From the IMG/VR virus record IMGVR_UViG_3300009537_000043, positions 1-42,981 of that record: a stretch of DNA of 42,981 bases. One strand, 5' to 3'. This document shows positions 12,794-42,981 of the stretch, in pieces. The notes beneath the pieces were generated by a model. That model did not search any database. It was not told where the DNA came from and was given only the letters and a program-made list of their open reading frames with translations. The translations under genes and the position numbers were made by a program. Each line of letters begins with the position of its first letter. Positions within the stretch are counted from its first letter, which is position 1. The DNA is from a virus.

Positions 12794-13381
12794 TTACTGT
12801 TTAGGAGGTACTGTATCACCTGTATATGAATTGATTACAGATGAAACTGTATTCAAGACTCCTGCTAGCTCTTGATGTTTAATTAGTGCATCCTTAATCT
12901 TAGAGTCCACTGCTTGCAACTCTGGTGTGGTTTGAAGAAGTTTTCGACCTTCTTCAATTCCAAGGATTACAGCTTTCAATGCTTGCTTATTTCGAATCAT
13001 TCTATAAATAGAATAAATAAGAGTAAGTAATCCTCCAGCAAACCCGGCAAAAGGAACTGGGAGTGAACCTGTAATAGCCAATCCACTTTCCACCATTGGT
13101 TTATTGACCAAGTTAGTGCTATACGATTCAGGGGTAATTACTATTTCAACAATAGGGGTAATTACCTGAGTAGTTTTCTCAGGAATGATTACACCTACCT
13201 CATTTGTGAACGAAGGAGTTACAATACTATTTGTAATCAACTTCGTATATGAGTTAGTAATTGCCGGTGTATAGGTTACGACATTGTCATAACCCTTGTC
13301 TAAGGTGTCACACCCTGTTACTAAGAAGAGGATGAACATTGCGATGAACATTGCGATGATAAATGTGATGTGTGTTTTCAT
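12794..13381 (-). CDS. Membrane lipoprotein with an additional internal TM helix (spanin-like topology, function unknown)
   Basis: N-terminus MKTHITFIIAMFIAMFILFLVTGC (lipobox V-T-G-C). A second hydrophobic helix is PVPFAGFAGGLLTLIYSIY. It is the last gene of the late arm. Confidence 0.6.
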   Translation of the reverse strand: MKTHITFIIAMFIAMFILFLVTGCDTLDKGYDNVVTYTPAITNSYTKLITNSIVTPSFTNEVGVIIPEKTTQVITPIVEIVITPESYSTNLVNKPMVESGLAITGSLPVPFAGFAGGLLTLIYSIYRMIRNKQALKAVILGIEEGRKLLQTTPELQAVDSKIKDALIKHQELAGVLNTVSSVINSYTGDTVPPKQ

Positions 13382-13417
13382 TGTGTTTGTGTTTGTGTTT
13401 GTGTTTGTGTTTGTGCT
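13382..13417 (-). repeat. Hexanucleotide microsatellite, (TGTGTT)5 plus a partial unit. On the coding strand it is (AACACA)n abutting the ATG of 12794..13381
   Basis: Read directly: tgtgtttgtgtttgtgtttgtgtttgtgtttgtgct. Confidence 0.9.
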
Positions 13418-34014: not shown

Positions 34015-35318
34015 ACAGCTAACAAATCATAGTCACTTTCTGCTTTGTCTTGAGGTTTCTTGTTGTGTTTAGACCTTTCTTTAATTGACATCGCTAATTC
34101 TCTAAAAGCATCAGCGCAATGTGAAGCCCAATCATGACAAGGTTTGTCCTTAAAAAGCATTTTGTCTTCATCATACTCCTTATGATACATCTTAAGAGCT
34201 TCAATACCATTTTCACATTTTGCCTTATCAAAGTAGCAACGAGGTAATAAAGCCCTAACAGCTTCGATTCCTTCATCAATGGGTAACTGTTTGCCGATTT
34301 CGAACTTAATTCCCAAGTCTTTTGCAGTTTGCCACCTGGTTTTGGCTGTCGAGATTTCACGAACATCAATGTCGTGTGGTGCATAGTGACGCCCGTAAAC
34401 GTAATTTCGTTCTCGTAGGATTTTCGCATAATGTGCAAACCCTTCTCCATTGTTTTCGTAGTGGTCAATGACTCGAACCTCGAACCCATAGACCTGGTAG
34501 AACCAAATATTACATGTGTCACCTACACCCAAGTCCCATGCTGTATGGACAGGAAGTTTCGACTCATATGGAACATTACAGATGCGTCCTTCTTTCTCTG
34601 CTTTATCCATCAACTTCCCATAATAACTTCCCTGGAGCGGAGCATCAAAGGAGCAATATACTTCCTGTTGAAGCATCTCTTCTGACATACCTGAGTCCCG
34701 CATTTCTTTTACTGCTTCATCGTCCAGAACTTTGGTGTAGTCATTCCCCATTACAGCACCATACCATCGAGGATTGTTCAATGCCATCTGCAACATCTTC
34801 CATCCATGGTTTCTTCCACGTGGAGTGTAAATGAAAAGTGCCCATCCATCATTTTCTGCCAGAATCGGCTGCAAAAACTCCCAAATCTTGGGGTTCATGA
34901 TGCTCCATTCAGAGAAGATGATGCCTTTCGGGTTTGGACCTACTAGAGAATCTGGTTTATCTGCCCCAACTACCTGATAAATTGAATTATTATTCAATGT
35001 TATCTTCATTTCTGTATTATTCTTACTTTTCACCAGTGCTTCGGGAAAAGCAGAGAGAAATGAACGGCCCGTCTTCGTTTTTCCATCCCACGCAATCTTC
35101 TTCCCTTGCGCATACGTAGGAAACAAGTGCCAATACAGTCCTGGTTCATCCATCGTGGCTGTTGCAATCAAGTTAATTGCATTAAGGTCCTTTCCACCAC
35201 GGCGGTGTAGCACCAGGACAGCACGTTTCTTTTTGAATCCTCCTTTTTGAAAGTAAGCCCACAGCGGTCGTTGATACCACCGTGGTTCAAAATCGTAAGG
35301 TATGGAGATTTCAGGCAT
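34011..35318 (-). CDS. Terminase large subunit
   Basis: The ATPase region has LVLHRRGGKD. The nuclease-domain pattern is VHTAWDLGVGDTCNIWFYQ. ATG 35318 overlaps the upstream stop; the ORF track start is 35366. Confidence 0.8.
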   Translation of the reverse strand: MPEISIPYDFEPRWYQRPLWAYFQKGGFKKKRAVLVLHRRGGKDLNAINLIATATMDEPGLYWHLFPTYAQGKKIAWDGKTKTGRSFLSAFPEALVKSKNNTEMKITLNNNSIYQVVGADKPDSLVGPNPKGIIFSEWSIMNPKIWEFLQPILAENDGWALFIYTPRGRNHGWKMLQMALNNPRWYGAVMGNDYTKVLDDEAVKEMRDSGMSEEMLQQEVYCSFDAPLQGSYYGKLMDKAEKEGRICNVPYESKLPVHTAWDLGVGDTCNIWFYQVYGFEVRVIDHYENNGEGFAHYAKILRERNYVYGRHYAPHDIDVREISTAKTRWQTAKDLGIKFEIGKQLPIDEGIEAVRALLPRCYFDKAKCENGIEALKMYHKEYDEDKMLFKDKPCHDWASHCADAFRELAMSIKERSKHNKKPQDKAESDYDLLAV

Positions 35319-35769
35319 CAGTTTCTCCTTCAATCTCTTCTCTGAGTGCTTCCTCCACCGGGGCAACCAGAGATTGAGGGATTCTGGGAATATTGATTAC
35401 TCCAGGTTTAACCTCATTTCCTAATTCATCAAAATGTTTCACCTTGAAAGTGAAGTCACCATCAATATGGGCATCTACCTCGATGGATTTCAACTTCGGA
35501 GCAAGGTAGGAAGCAATTTCTTTAGCGATTGCAATTTTCTGGTCCGTGGTGCAGATTGGAAGCCTTAATACTTTGCCGTCAACAATGGTTTCTTCGGTCT
35601 CTGAGGCAAGTCTAATTAACTCTTCAAACGGGTTGTAGTTGTTTTTTAAGCATAACTCATTTATCCTGCTTCTCACTTCAGCAGGAGTTAACGCACCGCG
35701 AATAGATTTAGTCTCGGAAGGCATACTACGCTCCAAAGAATCGTATGAATGGACCAATTTGTCAAGCAT
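35311..35769 (-). CDS. Putative terminase small subunit
   Basis: 152 aa, the first late gene, translationally coupled to the large terminase. The call is by position only. Confidence 0.45.
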   Translation of the reverse strand: MLDKLVHSYDSLERSMPSETKSIRGALTPAEVRSRINELCLKNNYNPFEELIRLASETEETIVDGKVLRLPICTTDQKIAIAKEIASYLAPKLKSIEVDAHIDGDFTFKVKHFDELGNEVKPGVINIPRIPQSLVAPVEEALREEIEGETDA

Positions 35770-35843
35770 TATTTTGAGTGAACCATAGAATTCGATACAT
35801 TAACCAAAAATCATTCCTAATTTTTTAGGAAATCACGTGTCAT

Positions 35844-36080
35844 GGATAATGGGTAGATGGCACTAGGTTCGTGGAAGATGGCAGAAATGCTCATGCACGA
35901 TGGCGCGACCTCCCTATCATTCACGGTCCACGGTTCAGTTTCCCCATCCCACCCCACCATGGACCAAAAAGAATTCTTCCCTGACCCTGGGAGTCTAGGT
36001 CCATCTAACATGTAGTGCCTGGCCTATGACTCTTAGTCCCATCGAACAATGTTAGGTGCGTCTAACATTATGAGTCATGG
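35844..36080 (-). other. ORF-poor, GC-elevated structured segment between the predicted late promoter and the first late gene (candidate leader RNA or sRNA)
   Basis: Two-tier hairpin 36024-36080 (9-bp outer and 8-bp inner stems). Blocks homologous to 36943-37027 lie in inverted orientation. A 7-bp hairpin plus T-run on the minus sense lies at 35814-35831. Confidence 0.3.
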
Positions 36081-36138
36081 CTAACAAAATTAGACTGCAC
36101 GGCACACGGGCCACGGGCCAGGAAATCGTCATCTATAT

Positions 36139-36167
36139 TTGATACTGGTTGCTACGACTTGTGACAA
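36139..36167 (-). promoter_or_regulatory. Candidate sigma70-type late-arm promoter
   Basis: On the minus strand: TTGTCA (36167-36162), 17 nt, TATCAA (36144-36139). Tandem ACGGGCC ACGGGCC (36106-36120) lies just downstream. Confidence 0.3.
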
Positions 36168-36182
36168 ACTTGCGGAAACCAC

Positions 36183-36211
36183 TTGACAAAATCCATAGAC
36201 CGTGCAACTAT
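36183..36211 (+). promoter_or_regulatory. Candidate sigma70-type early promoter
   Basis: TTGACA (36183-36188), 17 nt, AACTAT (36206-36211). It lies about 60 nt upstream of ATG 36272 and back-to-back with the minus-strand candidate. Confidence 0.35.
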
Positions 36212-36271
36212 CTACTCGTGGACAGGGACGTGGATGAACCCGTCTCAAACCCCACAGAACTAAGAACTAGT

Positions 36272-36733
36272 ATGAAAAACAAGACACAAGCACCTGTAAC
36301 TCCTAGCACTAACGTCATCTCCCTGGAGCAACTCACACCAGAGCAACTAGTTGCGTTGAAAAACCAGCTCAAAGCGCAAAAGAAGGCAAGGTCTAGCAAC
36401 CGTGAGGTTTGGGTCGAAACCGTGGATAAGATGTTGCAAGAGAAGGAGAACGGCCAATTCAAGAATACCACGGCAGATATCCTTGACGCGCTACAGGTTG
36501 CGAAGGCATGGGACGGTCAGGAACGTGAGGTCGAACTCAAGAAGGTCCAGACCCGCAAGCAGTTACACGTCAAGAAGGATGCCTCCAACAAGGACAAGTA
36601 TGGATACAAGGCCAGTGAACATGGATTCCAACTTACTGAAGCCAAGGTAGTTGCATGGTTCACTAGTCAGGACAAGGTTACGCTGGAACGTGTAGCAACT
36701 GCAGTGATTACCGCCGCGAACATGGCCAAGTAA
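36272..36733 (+). CDS. Early protein, paralogue A of 38112..38648, function unknown (basic, Lys-rich)
   Basis: Start taken at ATG 36272 (the track start, TTG 36149, is unlikely). It shares LTPEQL..L..QLKA.KK, EKE.G..FK.TT.DI..AL, KK.Q.RKQ, GYKAS..GF and WF blocks with paralogue B. Confidence 0.7.
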   Translation: MKNKTQAPVTPSTNVISLEQLTPEQLVALKNQLKAQKKARSSNREVWVETVDKMLQEKENGQFKNTTADILDALQVAKAWDGQEREVELKKVQTRKQLHVKKDASNKDKYGYKASEHGFQLTEAKVVAWFTSQDKVTLERVATAVITAANMAK

Positions 36734-36750
36734 CCAGGTATCACCTAGCA

Positions 36751-36781
36751 ACCCGTATGGGAAACACCCATACGGGTTTTT
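36751..36781 (+). terminator. Canonical intrinsic terminator
   Basis: 11-bp stem acccgtatggg / cccatacgggt with a 5-nt loop, followed by TTTTT. Confidence 0.8.
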
Positions 36782-36789
36782 CGTGCCCA

Positions 36790-37320
36790 GACGGTCCAAG
36801 GACGCGTCGGACTCGCTGGCCTATACCTACACCTAGGGACACCAGGAACACGTGCCTTGGTCCATCCCTGCGCGATTGCGGGGCACATTGGGCCGTGACC
36901 CTAGTGTCGAGAGTCATTTTGGCTCTCGATGCTATGGTTCATGGTCCATGGACGGATATTTGGAGTGGACAGGGAGAGAACGCCACTAGCACTCCCTATG
37001 AACGATTAGTGAATCACCCTATTATGCAACATCGAATATTCAAATCAGGCACAATAGGGGTTCAAACTAACCACCTAGCAAACCAACGACTTCCGTTTTC
37101 AGGAATTTGACTATGCAAGTGCGAACAAATCGCAGCTTCATCTTTGACAATACAAAACCACCAGGTTTCCTAGGTTTCATCGTAATCCCTATCACCGCAC
37201 TTGGGTATACGTGCCAACTAGCTTGTTCCCCTACAACTTACGCCGATTTCGAGCCAAAACGGCCCGAAAATCATATTGTTCCAAGTATCGGGCAAGGGAT
37301 ACCTAATAACTAAAGGGGTT
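36790..37320 (+). other. GC-elevated ORF-poor segment with local helices (candidate structured RNA or regulatory DNA)
   Basis: Track ORFs here have implausible composition. Helices include tcgagag/ctctcga (36907-36929) and agggag/ctccct (36971-36997). A block homologous to 35844-35965 lies on the opposite strand. Confidence 0.3.
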
Positions 37321-37445
37321 TTCTTTACATTTAATATAGTTCGTGTTTTTTCACTCCGCTTTTCCGTGTATTTGGCGCGTAAAATCACACACACGTTTAT
37401 TATCAAAAATCCGTCTAAGTAGCAAGCAGCATTCAGTGCCATTGC

Positions 37446-37459
37446 ATAGCAATTGCTAT
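37446..37459. promoter_or_regulatory. 14-bp perfect palindrome ATAGCAATTGCTAT (operator-like)
   Basis: Read directly. It lies 26 nt upstream of the third CCTAGCAA copy. Confidence 0.35.
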
Positions 37460-37511
37460 CACTTACAACGGCCAGTTGTAACCACCTAGCAAATCTAGGG
37501 GTGTTTTGCCT

Positions 37512-37542
37512 AAACCCTAGCAAATCAACCTACTTGGCACGT
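37512..37542 (+). repeat. 31-nt exact direct repeat, copy 1 (AAACCCTAGCAAATCAACCTACTTGGCACGT)
   Basis: Identical to 37617-37647. The start-to-start spacing is 105 bp. Confidence 0.9.
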
Positions 37543-37616
37543 AGCCACGACACTGCTTCCATGTCGTTTTTTCGTCGTTCAATTTTAACACCTATAAACA
37601 CTAGGTGTGTGCCCGC

Positions 37617-37647
37617 AAACCCTAGCAAATCAACCTACTTGGCACGT
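37617..37647 (+). repeat. 31-nt exact direct repeat, copy 2
   Basis: Identical to 37512-37542. Confidence 0.9.
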
Positions 37648-37655
37648 TACGTCAT

Positions 37656-37685
37656 TTCAAAATGAACCAAGCTGTTTGCTATATT
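37656..37685 (+). promoter_or_regulatory. Candidate extended -10 sigma70-type promoter just downstream of repeat copy 2
   Basis: TTCAAA (37656-37661), 18 nt, TGcTATATT (37677-37685). Confidence 0.3.
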
Positions 37686-37722
37686 GAGTTTGCCTTTCTC
37701 CTCTACTCAAACATACGTTAAA

Positions 37723-37843
37723 ACAGGGAGGCTTCAAGTCTATTTGTCCTAATCTTAATCCCATAAAAGCAATATCTATTTCTATTTATGACCTAAGAAA
37801 ATCTACTTTTAATTAAAGCAGAATTTACTCGTAGCCTCCCTGT
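37723..37843. repeat. 11-bp perfect inverted repeat (ACAGGGAGGCT / AGCCTCCCTGT) enclosing a 99-nt AT-rich tract
   Basis: The arms are 37723-37733 and 37833-37843. The interior is visibly AT-rich (ttaatcccataaaagcaatatctatttctatttatg...). Confidence 0.7.
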
Positions 37844-37858
37844 CCCAAGGTCCATGTT

Positions 37859-37893
37859 CCACATACCACATACCACAATCCCACAATCCCACA
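37859..37893 (+). repeat. CA-rich tandem tract (CCACATA x2, CCACAATC x2)
   Basis: Read directly: ccacataccacataccacaatcccacaatcccaca. Confidence 0.8.
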
Positions 37894-38111
37894 TAGAATA
37901 GAACCATACATCCATTCCACATGAGACATGGAGCATCAAATCACTCGTACAAACCCTAGCAGGTCAAAGGTTTGTAACTATTTTCGTAAAATTTTACGAT
38001 TTCGCTTGACGCCATACTAAAAAAAGGCGAGGATACGCCTGTTGACGGAACTAGTAGCATGAAGCGGAGTTCCAAGTCAAGACAGAAAACATAGAAACAT
38101 AGAACAAACAT

Positions 38112-38648
38112 ATGGCAGACAATAAACCTACGAAACCCGGTGCTCAAAAATCGGCTGCACCGAAAACCGCAACTCCTGAAAATGTCGTCCCCTCTGGCAT
38201 TGACCTGTCCAAGCTGACTCCTGAGCAGTTGGCGTCCCTGCAGAAACAGCTGAAGGCTAAGAAGAAGGAGAAGTCCGGCAAGAAGGAAGAGCGGTTTCAC
38301 ATCATTGACACCATGCTCGCTGAGAAGGAAGAGGGCAGTGATGAGTTCAAGCACACCACGCGGGACATCATGAACGCGTTGGTCAAGAATGACCTTGTTG
38401 ACACCACCGAACCCGATTTTGACACGGTGGAAATCAAGAAAATTCAGGCACGCAAGCAGTTCCTGGAGAAAAAGACCGATGAGAAGGGTAACTTGGTCCA
38501 TCCGAAAGGCTCGTTCGGTTACAAGGCGTCTGGTGGTGGCTTCGGTGTCCTGACAGCCTCTCGCATTGCTACATGGTTCTCCGTTCCGGCGAACGTGGCA
38601 CAACTCACTCCTACTCAGACTGCCGCTATCCTGGCGGTGCTGAAGTAA
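38112..38648 (+). CDS. Early protein, paralogue B of 36272..36733, function unknown
   Basis: 178 aa with the conserved blocks listed under paralogue A. It is preceded by an ATAGAA(A/C) leader and followed by a 13-bp hairpin. Confidence 0.75.
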   Translation: MADNKPTKPGAQKSAAPKTATPENVVPSGIDLSKLTPEQLASLQKQLKAKKKEKSGKKEERFHIIDTMLAEKEEGSDEFKHTTRDIMNALVKNDLVDTTEPDFDTVEIKKIQARKQFLEKKTDEKGNLVHPKGSFGYKASGGGFGVLTASRIATWFSVPANVAQLTPTQTAAILAVLK

Positions 38649-38658
38649 GAATGCACAT

Positions 38659-38689
38659 GAGCCTCCCTGTCACACCGACAGGGAGGCTC
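38659..38689 (+). terminator. 13-bp hairpin after paralogue B (no T-tract)
   Basis: gagcctccctgtc / gacagggaggctc with a 5-nt loop. The stem uses the same AGCCTCCCTGT 11-mer as the 37723/37833 inverted repeat. Confidence 0.5.
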
Positions 38690-38723
38690 TCTCACAAATA
38701 AGAACATAGAACTATAGAACAAT

Positions 38724-39424: not shown

Positions 39425-39460
39425 GCGTAGCAATCACGCTACATATAGAAAGATAGAACT

Positions 39461-40811: not shown

Positions 40812-40990
40812 GACACAAAGCAAATATGAACGAACACTGGAATGGATATCAACCGATGTGTAAGTGCAAAATGTGCAGCAGCATTCGTCGAGGAAGATTA
40901 CTGAACAAAGACCAAAAGTGGACGCAAGATGATGTTATCTCAACGGTGATATTCTTCGTGATAGCTACGGCTATTTGCGTCTTCGCATAA
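40808..40990 (+). CDS. Small protein with a C-terminal TM helix
   Basis: 60 aa with a Cys pair (CKCKMC) and C-terminal VISTVIFFVIATAICVFA. ATGA-coupled to the 3D-domain gene. Confidence 0.45.
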   Translation: MRHKANMNEHWNGYQPMCKCKMCSSIRRGRLLNKDQKWTQDDVISTVIFFVIATAICVFA

Positions 40991-41005
40991 CGAGAAAGGC
41001 CAGCG

Positions 41006-41311
41006 ATGAGCGTCGAATATCTAAAGATTCACGGCCAACCATGTGACTGTCCTTTTTGCGGGGCGGAGCGGAAGCTGGCGGCGGAAGCTGCACCGGCGGG
41101 CTCTGATGCGGCGTGTGCGTCCTGCAAATACTTCGTGCCTAGCAAAGAGAACGAATTTAATGGAATCTGTCGCCGTAACCCACCCAGCGTCAAAGACCGC
41201 TTCGGCGTGGACTATTGGCCGACCGTCGGACGCGGAGCGTGGTGTGGTGAATACAAGCCTCAGAACGGCCCGGATCAGGGACGCCGGGCCAGCGACTCTA
41301 AAACTTTATGA
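41006..41311 (+). CDS. Cys-rich hypothetical protein (GC-rich island)
   Basis: CDCPFCG...CASCKYF...GICRR...WCGEY. It is preceded by the duplicated AACGAGAAAGG(C/T)CAGCG leader. An alternative-frame ORF (41043..41330) is judged less likely. Confidence 0.5.
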   Translation: MSVEYLKIHGQPCDCPFCGAERKLAAEAAPAGSDAACASCKYFVPSKENEFNGICRRNPPSVKDRFGVDYWPTVGRGAWCGEYKPQNGPDQGRRASDSKTL

Positions 41312-41517
41312 AACCTTCTCGAAAAACTGAAATCGCCAACCGGCGTTCGGTGCAGCCGGATTGTTCTACGGCGTCGAACTGCTTCACGCGAGACTGGCAC
41401 TGGACGCTTCGGAGCATGGAAATCTACGCCGGGCCGCTGTGCCGCCGATGTGGTGAGAGTGTCCCAAGTACCGATGGCCTCTGCGAAGAATGCGAGGTCG
41501 AAAGGCTGTATGACTAA
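41308..41517 (+). CDS. Small zinc-ribbon protein (GC-rich island)
   Basis: CRRCGE...CEECE. ATGA-coupled to the previous gene. Confidence 0.45.
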   Translation: MKPSRKTEIANRRSVQPDCSTASNCFTRDWHWTLRSMEIYAGPLCRRCGESVPSTDGLCEECEVERLYD

Positions 41518-41541
41518 GCCGCAGAACGAGAAAGGTCAGCG

Positions 41542-41850
41542 ATGAGACACAAAACAAATCGAGAACTATATGAACAGCTTGAGGCAATGAGTCCTGACCG
41601 AACTGCCAAGACCCAGCCGGGTTCTGGTGCAGCAAGTGGTTCGGAAGCACATCGCAAGGAAATGCTCAATGCTGCCCTGGACGATATAGGTCTGGCACTG
41701 GAGAAATTTGGGAAGACTTTCGGAACAGGAACAGGCGCGAAATACCTGGCGCGTGAAGAACTCAAGGACGCTCGGGACTTCCTAAAGGCCGTGCTTCCGA
41801 ACGATGGAACTCAGCGGCCCGGCACACCGGTAACTAAAATAACAAAATGA
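41542..41850 (+). CDS. Hypothetical protein (GC-rich island)
   Basis: 102-aa ORF preceded by the second copy of the duplicated leader. Confidence 0.5.
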   Translation: MRHKTNRELYEQLEAMSPDRTAKTQPGSGAASGSEAHRKEMLNAALDDIGLALEKFGKTFGTGTGAKYLAREELKDARDFLKAVLPNDGTQRPGTPVTKITK

Positions 41851-42552: not shown

Positions 42553-42942
42553 ATGACAACACCAGCAGCAGCAAACTTCTATCTCGCACAACATCTACTC
42601 GAACAAGAGGGCAAACCTTATGCCGTCTTTAATCCTCATAATAAACATGTTGAAACATTACCTGTTATCTTCGGATTTAATAACGGTGGGTCTAATGGTT
42701 GGTATAGGGCGTGCTTACTTGCAGAAGATGGCACACATCTAGGTGGCCACATCTGTTCGCACGAAGGTTACATGCGACACGACCTTGGTATCCTTGAAGG
42801 AACTCGTCCAGACAGGCACGAAGATTTTAAGAAACACTATCCGAATGGGTATCGTATGGCGTTTGTCTCGTTACACGAAGTGATGAATTGCAAACCTTTA
42901 CTGAAGGCGTTTGAACTAAACAAACTGAAAGAACCGAAATGA
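42553..42942 (+). CDS. Hypothetical protein. Its 3' end lies in the terminal overlap
   Basis: 129-aa ORF. The last 60 nt are duplicated at 1-60. Confidence 0.5.
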   Translation: MTTPAAANFYLAQHLLEQEGKPYAVFNPHNKHVETLPVIFGFNNGGSNGWYRACLLAEDGTHLGGHICSHEGYMRHDLGILEGTRPDRHEDFKKHYPNGYRMAFVSLHEVMNCKPLLKAFELNKLKEPK

Positions 42943-42981
42943 ACTACGAATACGAATGCACCAACTGTGGAGAGGAGATAA
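42883..42981. repeat. Terminal overlap, copy 2. It indicates circular closure or a short direct terminal repeat
   Basis: Exact 99-nt identity with 1-99. ORF 57..323 restarts at 42939. Confidence 0.95.

Follow-up and report, generated by a model that had tools for sequence, protein, structure and literature searches.

A clade-wide family of DNA sites in the gene-free tract of a T7-like podophage: a candidate replication-control or genome-end element

What is served by a tract of about 1.4 kb that holds no gene and carries, between two related small genes, six same-strand copies of the word CCTAGCA(A/G)? The tract lies at positions 36,734 to 38,111 of the virus record IMGVR_UViG_3300009537_000043 in IMG/VR, whose whole 42,981-nt stretch we call the window; the genes bounding it upstream and downstream are termed P1 and P2. 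An earlier note on this DNA had seen in the repeats an iteron-like array, fitting a replication origin or else a multi-site operator or centromere. Our analysis confirms the array, shows that its kind of site is conserved across a group of uncultured podophages and finds it essentially limited to one locus; its most likely role is to bind a phage protein in the initiation of replication or the maturation of the DNA. The earlier perception of a non-random, same-strand-biased array of recognition sites in non-coding DNA stands, but it left out a serious rival to an origin, namely that the tract is a T7-style genome-end and packaging region.

The repeats and the site family behind them

On both strands of the window together, CCTAGCAR occurs 12 times, against 1.95 ± 1.26 in shuffled sequences (0 of 100 shuffles reach 12). 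Six plus-strand copies stand in the tract, at 36744, 37074, 37485, 37516, 37621 and 37955, all where the earlier note had placed them. Its further claim that they cluster beyond chance is borne out: at the shuffle rate 0.03 plus-strand copies are expected in the 1,378-nt tract, and the probability of six or more is about 1e-12. The exact 31-nt repeat AAACCCTAGCAAATCAACCTACTTGGCACGT was likewise found at 37512-37542 and 37617-37647 with its starts 105 bp apart, and TAACCACCTAGCAAA is present twice, at 37068 and 37479. The tract is indeed gene-free, having no long open reading frame (ORF) in any frame even when TAG, TGA or TAA is read through; the same holds for the tracts of 11 relatives, and a hidden gene with a reassigned stop codon was accordingly discarded for all 12.

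The window is a complete genome of about 42.9 kb from a T7-like podophage without its own RNA polymerase. It was compared with eleven other genomes for which the DNA around P2 was fetched (given by L numbers below), making a set of 12; scans of metagenomes and viral contigs gained only a few extra loci. P2 has 51 homologues, many of them on contigs of 41-45 kb. Across the related genomes P2 is 47-80% identical to that of the window, the two closest relatives, L001 and L004, reaching 77-80%. The gene order terL(-), terS(-), P1(+), a gene-free tract of 1.2-1.6 kb and P2(+) is common to all 12 genomes. In the window the small terminase gene is at 35311-35769, and about 1 kb separates the tract from the terminase genes.

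Judged by sequence, the six copies (the CCTAGCAA repeats) represent in this phage a family of DNA sites, 16-25 bp long, that spans the clade. When all instances are aligned on the core, the consensus is cAAAC-C[C/A]TAG-[C/T]AAA, and conservation fades past about 12 nt on either side. A search of the first three relatives found no exact CCTAGCA word in their tracts, while the degenerate form is everywhere. The k-mers most widely shared by the 12 tracts are AAACCCT, ACCCTAG, CCTAGTA, CTAGTAA, AAACATA, CACCTAG and TAGGTGT, the top ones being enriched 10-30-fold over the flanking genes. Similarly, CMTAGYAA reaches a density of 1.87/kb on the plus and 0.60/kb on the minus strand in the tracts, against 0.11/kb and 0.02/kb, respectively, outside them. 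A weight matrix built from the relatives alone and scored on both strands of the whole 43-kb window ranks the six reported copies 1 to 6, with the next match much weaker and inside a gene. In the 20-kb loci of two relatives nearly all strong matrix matches fall in the tract, one weaker match per locus lying outside, and the scan places no site at the P1 promoter, at the start of the late operon or in the rest of the genome. That the sites are essentially confined to one locus speaks for a single cis-element rather than a regulon.

Some sites stand alone, but many form dyads, examples being CCTAGCAAATCTAGG, ACACCTA-N7-TAGGTGT and the palindrome ATAGCAATTGCTAT; single half-sites and inverted pairs have one half-site in common. 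Certain dyads recur identically between genomes: CCTAGTAAACATAGG is found three times in L005 and again in L012, and CATAGTAAACATAGG in both L005 and L010, while the palindrome-like arrangement CATAG(C/T)AATTGCTA appears twice in L008. Spacing and orientation vary from genome to genome, as does the number of sites (2-9); in L003, the most distant lineage, the tract is kept and the site variants have drifted (CAAACCCTTGGAAATC). Of 36 distances between neighbours, 11 fall at the mode of 28-33 bp; spacing is otherwise irregular, from 20 to 400 bp, with the sites spread over about 900 bp. A 10.5-bp phasing is weak and not independent across close relatives (Rayleigh p ~0.014).

These comparisons separate what the clade keeps from what belongs to the window phage. 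The 105-bp spacing that had been equated with ten helical turns is exact, but it comes from a duplication unique to the window phage, and the spacing that recurs is about 30 bp. L001 and L004 have the first copy alone, as CAAACCTTAGCAAATCAACCTG and CAAACCATAGCAAATCAACCTAC, respectively, and a different unit at the place of the second; because the two closest relatives keep only that first 31-mer, the exact duplication with its 105-bp spacing is recent and local. The promoter-like element noted at 37656-37685 is present (TTCAAA-18-TATATT with a TG) but not conserved, and it lies within an alignment gap relative to the relatives. Thus, the expectation of conservation in related phages holds for the site family, which is kept across the clade, but not for the 31-nt duplicate, the 105-bp spacing or the element at 37656, all of which are specific to the window. 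The sites of the window are the following, with matrix scores in parentheses:

36736..36757, plus strand: site copy 1, core CCTAGCAA at 36744-36751, overlapping the foot of the P1 terminator; weakest of the six (14.5)
37066..37087, plus strand: site copy 2, ACTAACCACCTAGCAAACCAAC (18.9), with a near-identical orthologue in L004 and the variant CATAGTAAAT in L001
37446..37459, unstranded: the perfect 14-bp palindrome ATAGCAATTGCTAT, present as reported earlier and made of two TAGCAA half-sites of the same family head to head
37477..37499, plus strand: site copy 3 (16.6), with the full dyad CCTAGCAAATCTAGG at 37485-37499
37512..37542, plus strand: first 31-nt repeat, which is site copy 4, core at 37516 (19.4); single-copy orthologues in L001 and L004
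37588..37608, unstranded: dyad ACACCTATAAACACTAGGTGT, a member of the site family
37617..37647, plus strand: second 31-nt repeat, which is site copy 5, core at 37621 (20.7); absent at this position in L001 and L004
37947..37968, plus strand: site copy 6, CAAACCCTAGCAGGTCAAA (15.4); its start lies 50 bp before the P2 -35 element

Action on DNA and the flanking genes

Whether such sites act on DNA or in RNA bears directly on what they could be for, and here the promoters and terminators framing the tract matter. They are listed with the other features of the region:

36182..36216, plus strand: P1 promoter-like element, CTTGAC at 36182-36187, a 17-18 nt spacer and CAACTA/AACTAT; the -35 is of the CTTGAC type, as in the clade-wide P2 promoter
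36272..36733, plus strand: P1, 153 aa, basic, pI 9.55; no PHROG or Pfam match
36750..36785, plus strand: P1 intrinsic terminator, a 12-bp stem AACCCGTATGGG/CCCATACGGGTT and then a T-run; both L001 and L004 conserve it
36786..36935, unstranded: Block A, conserved non-coding DNA of 60% G+C, ...GGCCTATACCyACACCTAGG...ACACGTGCCTTGG.CCATCCyTGCGCGATTGCGGGG..CATTGGGC
36888..36947, unstranded: long imperfect hairpin or inverted repeat specific to the window, within a structured segment (36735-37010, z = -6.1); missing from L001 and L004
37723..37843, unstranded: inverted repeat ACAGGGAGGCT / AGCCTCCCTGT, with 11-bp arms around about 77 nt of 75% A+T; arms conserved in L004 and partly in L001
37859..37895, plus strand: C/A-rich tandem array of the CCACATA type, period 8, 5 copies; not conserved as an array in relatives
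38005..38034, plus strand: P2 promoter, cTTGACG (38006-38011) and GAGGAT (38029-38034) separated by 17 nt; A/T-rich DNA comes before it
38043..38081, plus strand: conserved P2-leader hairpin TTGAC-GGAAC ... GTTCC-aa-GTCAA; L001 keeps the pairing via a G-U change, as read directly
38112..38648, plus strand: P2, 178 aa, pI 9.38
38659..38689, plus strand: P2 terminator hairpin, the inverted repeat GAGCCTCCCTGTC / GACAGGGAGGCTC

P1 ends in a strong terminator, and the sole promoter of the TTGAC type that is conserved in the tracts, on either strand, is P2's own (across the clade cTTGAC, 17-18 nt and nAnnnT, about 100 nt before the P2 ATG); hence, no conserved promoter feeds the tract. CATAG and ATAGG variants of the sites are frequent, so that would-be stems are broken without compensation and stems of 3 bp are left. 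The array region folds with an energy that is ordinary against shuffles (z from -0.6 to -2.6). A search of the whole window against Rfam gave no match at the gathering threshold and, at E <= 5, a single one of chance level (E 0.68) outside the tract; no known RNA or tRNA was matched. From the missing promoter, the uncompensated stems, the ordinary folding, the lack of covariation in Block A and the silence of Rfam we conclude that the sites act on DNA and not as RNA hairpins.

The converse, that the tract is transcribed and works through small hairpins (boxB-like or processing sites) or as a long non-coding RNA, or that a C-rich, G-poor RNA would load Rho as an insulator between P1 and P2, appears highly improbable in the light of the same evidence. 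It would explain why some of the units are hairpins of 15 nt whose loop is A-rich (CCUAG-CAAAU-CUAGG), why the loop or spacer is strand-asymmetric with YAAA on the plus strand, and why the plus strand is C-rich and G-poor in all tracts. It could also draw on the 5' third of the tract, the segment 36735-37010, which folds far better than its shuffles; yet this structured segment is partly absent from close relatives, and Block A shows no covariation in support of an RNA structure and was set aside as one. The likeness to the nut/boxB elements of phage lambda comprises the 15-nt unit, the 5-bp stem and A-rich pentaloop of some copies and the adjoining gene for a small basic protein. In contrast to lambda, however, there is no upstream promoter here, the stems vary without compensatory change and the copies are many as opposed to one per operon; nut-type hairpins were rejected on the first two of these grounds.

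Block A holds a site-like pair, CCTAT..CCTAGG, and is kept in L001, L004 and L008 and partly in L026. Its DNA is about 80% identical to that of L004/L023, close to the value for the neighbouring P2 gene (82%). Just after it, several lineages have a palindromic GGTCC-N2-4-GGACC (36941-36953 in the window, GTCCATGGAC; about 3443-3456 in L026 and 4588-4605 in L003), and GGTCCAT words are also seen at 36856, at 37848 and in the terS-P1 intergenic region.

As for what might bind the sites, the earlier note had pointed to the two flanking genes, which it took for paralogues. They are related (43% identity, E 2e-20); the start of P1 moves from TTG 36149 to, most likely, ATG 36272, because the resulting 153 aa fits the 141-164 aa of most homologues. 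The N-terminus of P2 is disordered and rich in A/P/T/K, and a near-invariant segment, EIKKIQARKQFLEKK...FGYKAS, includes the K/R-rich helix EIKKIQARKQFLEKK; the AlphaFold2 model of the protein is confident (pLDDT 80) but has no structural neighbour in PDB or BFVD by Foldseek. Searches of Pfam, PHROGs, PDB sequences and an exhaustive profile search returned no informative match for either protein. The family has 43 cluster representatives among 1.84 billion proteins, all of 80-292 aa, and is confined to the same clade as the sites. P1 and P2 each have their own promoter and terminator and are likely made very early. The early proteins match no known DNA-binding, initiator, regulator or partition family, in agreement with the earlier statement that no initiator or ParB is recognisable; as no ParB, ParA or RHH family member is among them, a centromere of the ParB/parS type was dropped.

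The proposal that the paralogues are the binders therefore survives in part. They are real, basic and present in the same clade as the array, and this position, charge and shared narrow distribution make them candidate binders of the sites; DNA binding by them is plausible, but since their fold matches nothing known, it is something we infer. The sites and P1/P2 form a directly testable protein-DNA pair, and should binding be found, they would define a new DNA-binding family. Protein-binding repeat arrays in phage control regions are already familiar; what is defined here is a concrete recognition sequence, its conserved location and a clade-restricted pair of basic proteins always flanking it. 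For environmental podophages without their own RNA polymerase we know of no described origins, packaging signals or early regulators.

Replication control, genome ends or transcription

Our favoured reading, with a probability of roughly 0.35, is that a phage protein binds the sites on double-stranded DNA and that their tract is an origin-like control region; the basic P1 and P2 are the candidate binders. The sites exist, are conserved and sit at a single locus, in non-coding DNA without a conserved internal promoter. In this reading they would be docking sites for a sequence-specific phage protein, and the 1.4 kb tract would be the cis-acting region through which the phage controls its replication. 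Single and paired sites about three helical turns apart would there act next to the 75% A+T segment held within the 11-bp inverted repeat, with one site directly upstream of the P2 promoter. The logic would be that of iteron replicons, in which the initiator gene lies beside the iterons and is controlled via an inverted half-iteron. Protein binding, P2 and/or P1 as the binder and the initiation of replication as the outcome are what we infer.

The A+T-rich tract mentioned in the earlier note does adjoin the array: 37745-37825 has 75% A+T, as against 59% for the genome, lies within the inverted repeat and is a candidate unwinding element. The word ACAGGGAGGCT or its complement occurs six times around P2 (36975, 37723, 37833, 38660, 38677 and 38834), making up the arms of this long A+T-rich hairpin as well as the P2 terminator; L001 has the related CAGGGAGG in the same places.

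We compared the tract with the iteron origins of plasmids F, pSC101, R6K and pPS10, the ori of phage lambda and the ori/crr of satellite P4. In common with these, many copies of one short recognition sequence lie in a non-coding stretch as single sites and inverted pairs with a common half-site, an A+T-rich segment lies alongside, the cluster is unique in the genome and the gene of a small basic protein follows immediately downstream with a site near its promoter. In satellite P4, too, octamers in either orientation are dispersed across some hundred bp.

Several observations weigh against an origin-like region. No known initiator fold or family was found: no protein of the Rep_3, lambda-O or P4-alpha type turned up nearby, P1 and P2 match no known fold, and weak winged-helix matches were returned for just 2-3 of 38 family members. 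The copy number, spacing and orientation of the sites differ among relatives, whereas classical iterons form regular arrays with 20-22 bp spacing, and the tract is several times longer than the classical origins. Host DnaA boxes, a feature of many though not all such origins, are denser in the tracts than outside when sought as TTWTNCACA with at most one mismatch (3.8/kb versus 1.5/kb), but they form no conserved cluster and were discarded; the CCACA array is specific to the window, and a candidate IHF site in CAAATCAACCTACTTG proved, on direct reading, to have a spacing off by one. The GC skew is confounded by gene orientation. Phages of the T7 type classically initiate replication at promoters, not at iterons, and the virion genes here are of the T7 type. 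Neither the exact 31-nt repeat and its 105-bp spacing nor the promoter-like element at 37656 is conserved. Finally, a hot spot of contig ends and the T7-like composition of the tract fit a genome-end or packaging function at least equally well.

This last point needs the layout of the genome. An early and DNA-metabolism arm on the plus strand runs from 36.2 kb past the window end to 12.7 kb and encodes a ligase, thymidylate synthase, dCMP deaminase, PolA, an AEP primase (with the AEP domain only) and two helicases. A virion arm on the minus strand runs from 35.8 kb down to 12.8 kb with the large terminase, a T7-type portal, capsid, nozzle, internal virion proteins and fibres. The two ends of the window overlap identically by 99 bp (1-99 and 42883-42981), leaving 42,882 bp of unique sequence. 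This overlap lies within coding sequence, away from the tract, and resembles the assembly overlap of a circular map, not a physical terminal repeat.

In the main rival reading, less probable but serious, packaged DNA would have ends of the T7 type within the tract, and about Block A there would be a short direct terminal repeat. The CCTAG sites would then be the counterpart of the same-strand CCTAAAG arrays (the short repeats SRL/SRR) that flank the terminal repeat of T7, and would serve recognition of the concatemer junction by terminase or an end-specific function, and P2 would have the first early promoter, like A1-A3 of T7. In T7 packaging, pac signals at the concatemer junction are read by the small terminase (PMC9860248). 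The left end of T7 has 11 exact CCTAAAG copies on one strand inside and just after a 160-bp terminal repeat, with the early promoters next, in 925 bp without genes. Here too a gene-free tract of about 1-1.4 kb precedes the first early gene of a T7-like podophage, and after a G+C-rich block comes C/A-rich DNA with many same-strand copies of a short motif containing CCTA. The compositions run parallel: the T7 terminal repeat has 52% G+C and no skew and its repeat array 39% G+C with a GC skew of -0.44, while Block A has 60% G+C and the remaining tract 38-44% G+C with a skew of -0.19 to -0.23. The plus strand is C-rich in each of the 12 tracts, and the nearness of the tract to the terminase genes fits as well. 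The T7 promoters A2 and A3 have about 20 nt in common at a spacing of 124 bp, indicating that long exact repeats at a spacing of about 100 bp arise in tracts of this kind.

The ends of partial contigs point the same way. Four independent ones, from four lineages and from different samples and assemblers, start 1,014-1,137 nt upstream of the P2 ATG, contig L027 begins exactly at the end of Block A (CATTGGTCC), and a 1,083-bp contig from the P1 side ends 209 nt past the P1 stop, about 50 nt from the L027 start point. Yet complete contigs break at scattered positions, and three of the four partial ones share a right end just past the DNA polymerase gene, which points to modules shared between strains and not to genome ends. 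As an observation in its own right, the pile-up of ends corresponds to about 36,890-37,100 of the window and has equivalents at 3918 in L006, 8929 in L018, 4986 in L003 and 3439 in L026. The contigs of L002, L007 and L027 measure 12,319, 12,558 and 12,646 bp and extend from mid-tract to about 0.5-0.7 kb past the DNA polymerase gene (window ~6.5-6.7 kb), and a fourth of 13,001 bp (L030) starts at P2. This discrete, recurring segment of about 12.5 kb may be a module shared between strains, may be over-represented or may come from assembly.

Other comparisons set the tract apart from a T7 end. The T7 heptamers follow one another every 12-14 bp in a single orientation, whereas the sites here are longer, partly dyadic and irregularly dispersed over about 900 bp. 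There is one conserved host-type promoter, that of P2, and no conserved tandem set was found in the tracts; the late genes lie on the opposite strand, and the large terminase has no detectable similarity to T7 gp19 (BLASTP, best E 2.7). We know of no established function for the T7 CCTAAAG arrays themselves.

A second point of reference is provided by the freshwater cyanopodoviruses of the Pf-WMP4 type (Saffermanviridae), which likewise have rightward early genes, leftward virion and terminase genes and rely on the host RNA polymerase for transcription. In Pf-WMP4 a sparsely annotated stretch of about 1.2 kb (L037 2055-3240) comes after the fourth early gene. Pf-WMP4 differs in having no detectable P1/P2 homologue and, by eye, no CCTAG site family in that stretch, which contains inverted repeats, GGGTGTTTA words and possibly small unannotated ORFs. 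Its reported terminal repeat is 107-234 bp (PMC10140849), and the ends of its linear record lie where the arms diverge; the equivalent here, 35769-36180, falls outside the tract and thus speaks against genome ends within it.

The sites might also serve transcription alone, as operators or activator sites for an early regulator that sets P2 and the downstream early operon, possibly through autoregulation of P1/P2. In five of the 12 genomes (the window, L006, L010, L011 and L012) a site lies upstream of the P2 -35 element, at distances of 26, 37, 39, 50 and 50 bp, that is in steps of about 11 bp like the positions of class I activators. Dyad symmetry is typical of dimeric regulators, and P1 and P2 are separate promoter-to-terminator units. 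Most sites, however, are as far as 350-1,000 bp upstream of the one promoter that is conserved, the promoter-proximal copy has decayed in L001 and L004, none is present at the P1 promoter, the late-operon start or elsewhere, and a tract of 1.2-1.6 kb far exceeds the need of one promoter. A purely transcriptional role hence seems unlikely.

Various promoter types were also tried and rejected. A set of phage-polymerase promoters was dropped for want of an RNA polymerase gene among the large window proteins and because the motif is confined to one tract. A sigma-54 promoter via TGGCACG in the 31-mer has, by direct reading, no TTGC at -12. Tandem sigma-70 promoters in the 31-mer would have the -35-like CTTGGC, but neither copy is followed by a -10 and the downstream sequences differ. 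Promoters of the Bacteroidota type, an idea arising from the missing Shine-Dalgarno sequences, were not upheld: TAnnTTTG is no marker of gene starts and the P1 and P2 promoters are of the CTTGAC type. An apparent homology between the tract and the region upstream of P1 came down to short words at chance level.

To return to the favoured origin-like region, a bolder version of it would make P1/P2 a sequence-specific DNA-binding family of new fold acting on CMTAGYAA sites. They would be the initiator pair of an undescribed origin module in lytic T7-like podophages lacking an RNA polymerase, and the recurrent contigs of about 12.5 kb would be an over-replicated origin-proximal segment. We consider this unlikely.

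Surroundings of the locus and minor observations

The nearest GenBank phages, a metagenome phage from Manatee Spring and pelagiphages of the HTVC010P type, are 35-50% identical to the window phage in protein. A nucleotide search with the window gave no match, and MW202510, the closest GenBank phage, is without P1, P2 and the gene-free tract. A scan of genome contigs for a host gave no match. No integrase or partition gene was seen among the ORFs scanned, and the phage looks lytic. In the early region of relatives a gene of the Gad2 family (anti-Gabija) stands directly before the ligase (L004 6223-7038, L010 7113-7958, L011 6673-7575 and L026 8461-9339); because of it the early arm looks like a cassette of anti-defence genes.

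Genes anywhere in the window genome lack a preceding Shine-Dalgarno sequence, and A-rich leaders with repeated ACATAGAAC / ATAGAAC words stand directly before start codons at 38088-38107, 38695-38722 and 39440-39460. These two features together suggest that translation is initiated in an unusual way or that the host is an unusual one. Another leader, ACGAGAAAGG(C/T)CAGCG, at 40981-41005 and 41517-41541, immediately precedes the ATG of two unrelated small genes (41006-41311 and 41542-41850), whose products have no protein similarity. A perfect (TTGTGT)x5.8 tandem repeat occupies 13381-13415, directly upstream of the last gene of the minus-strand arm (12794-13381).

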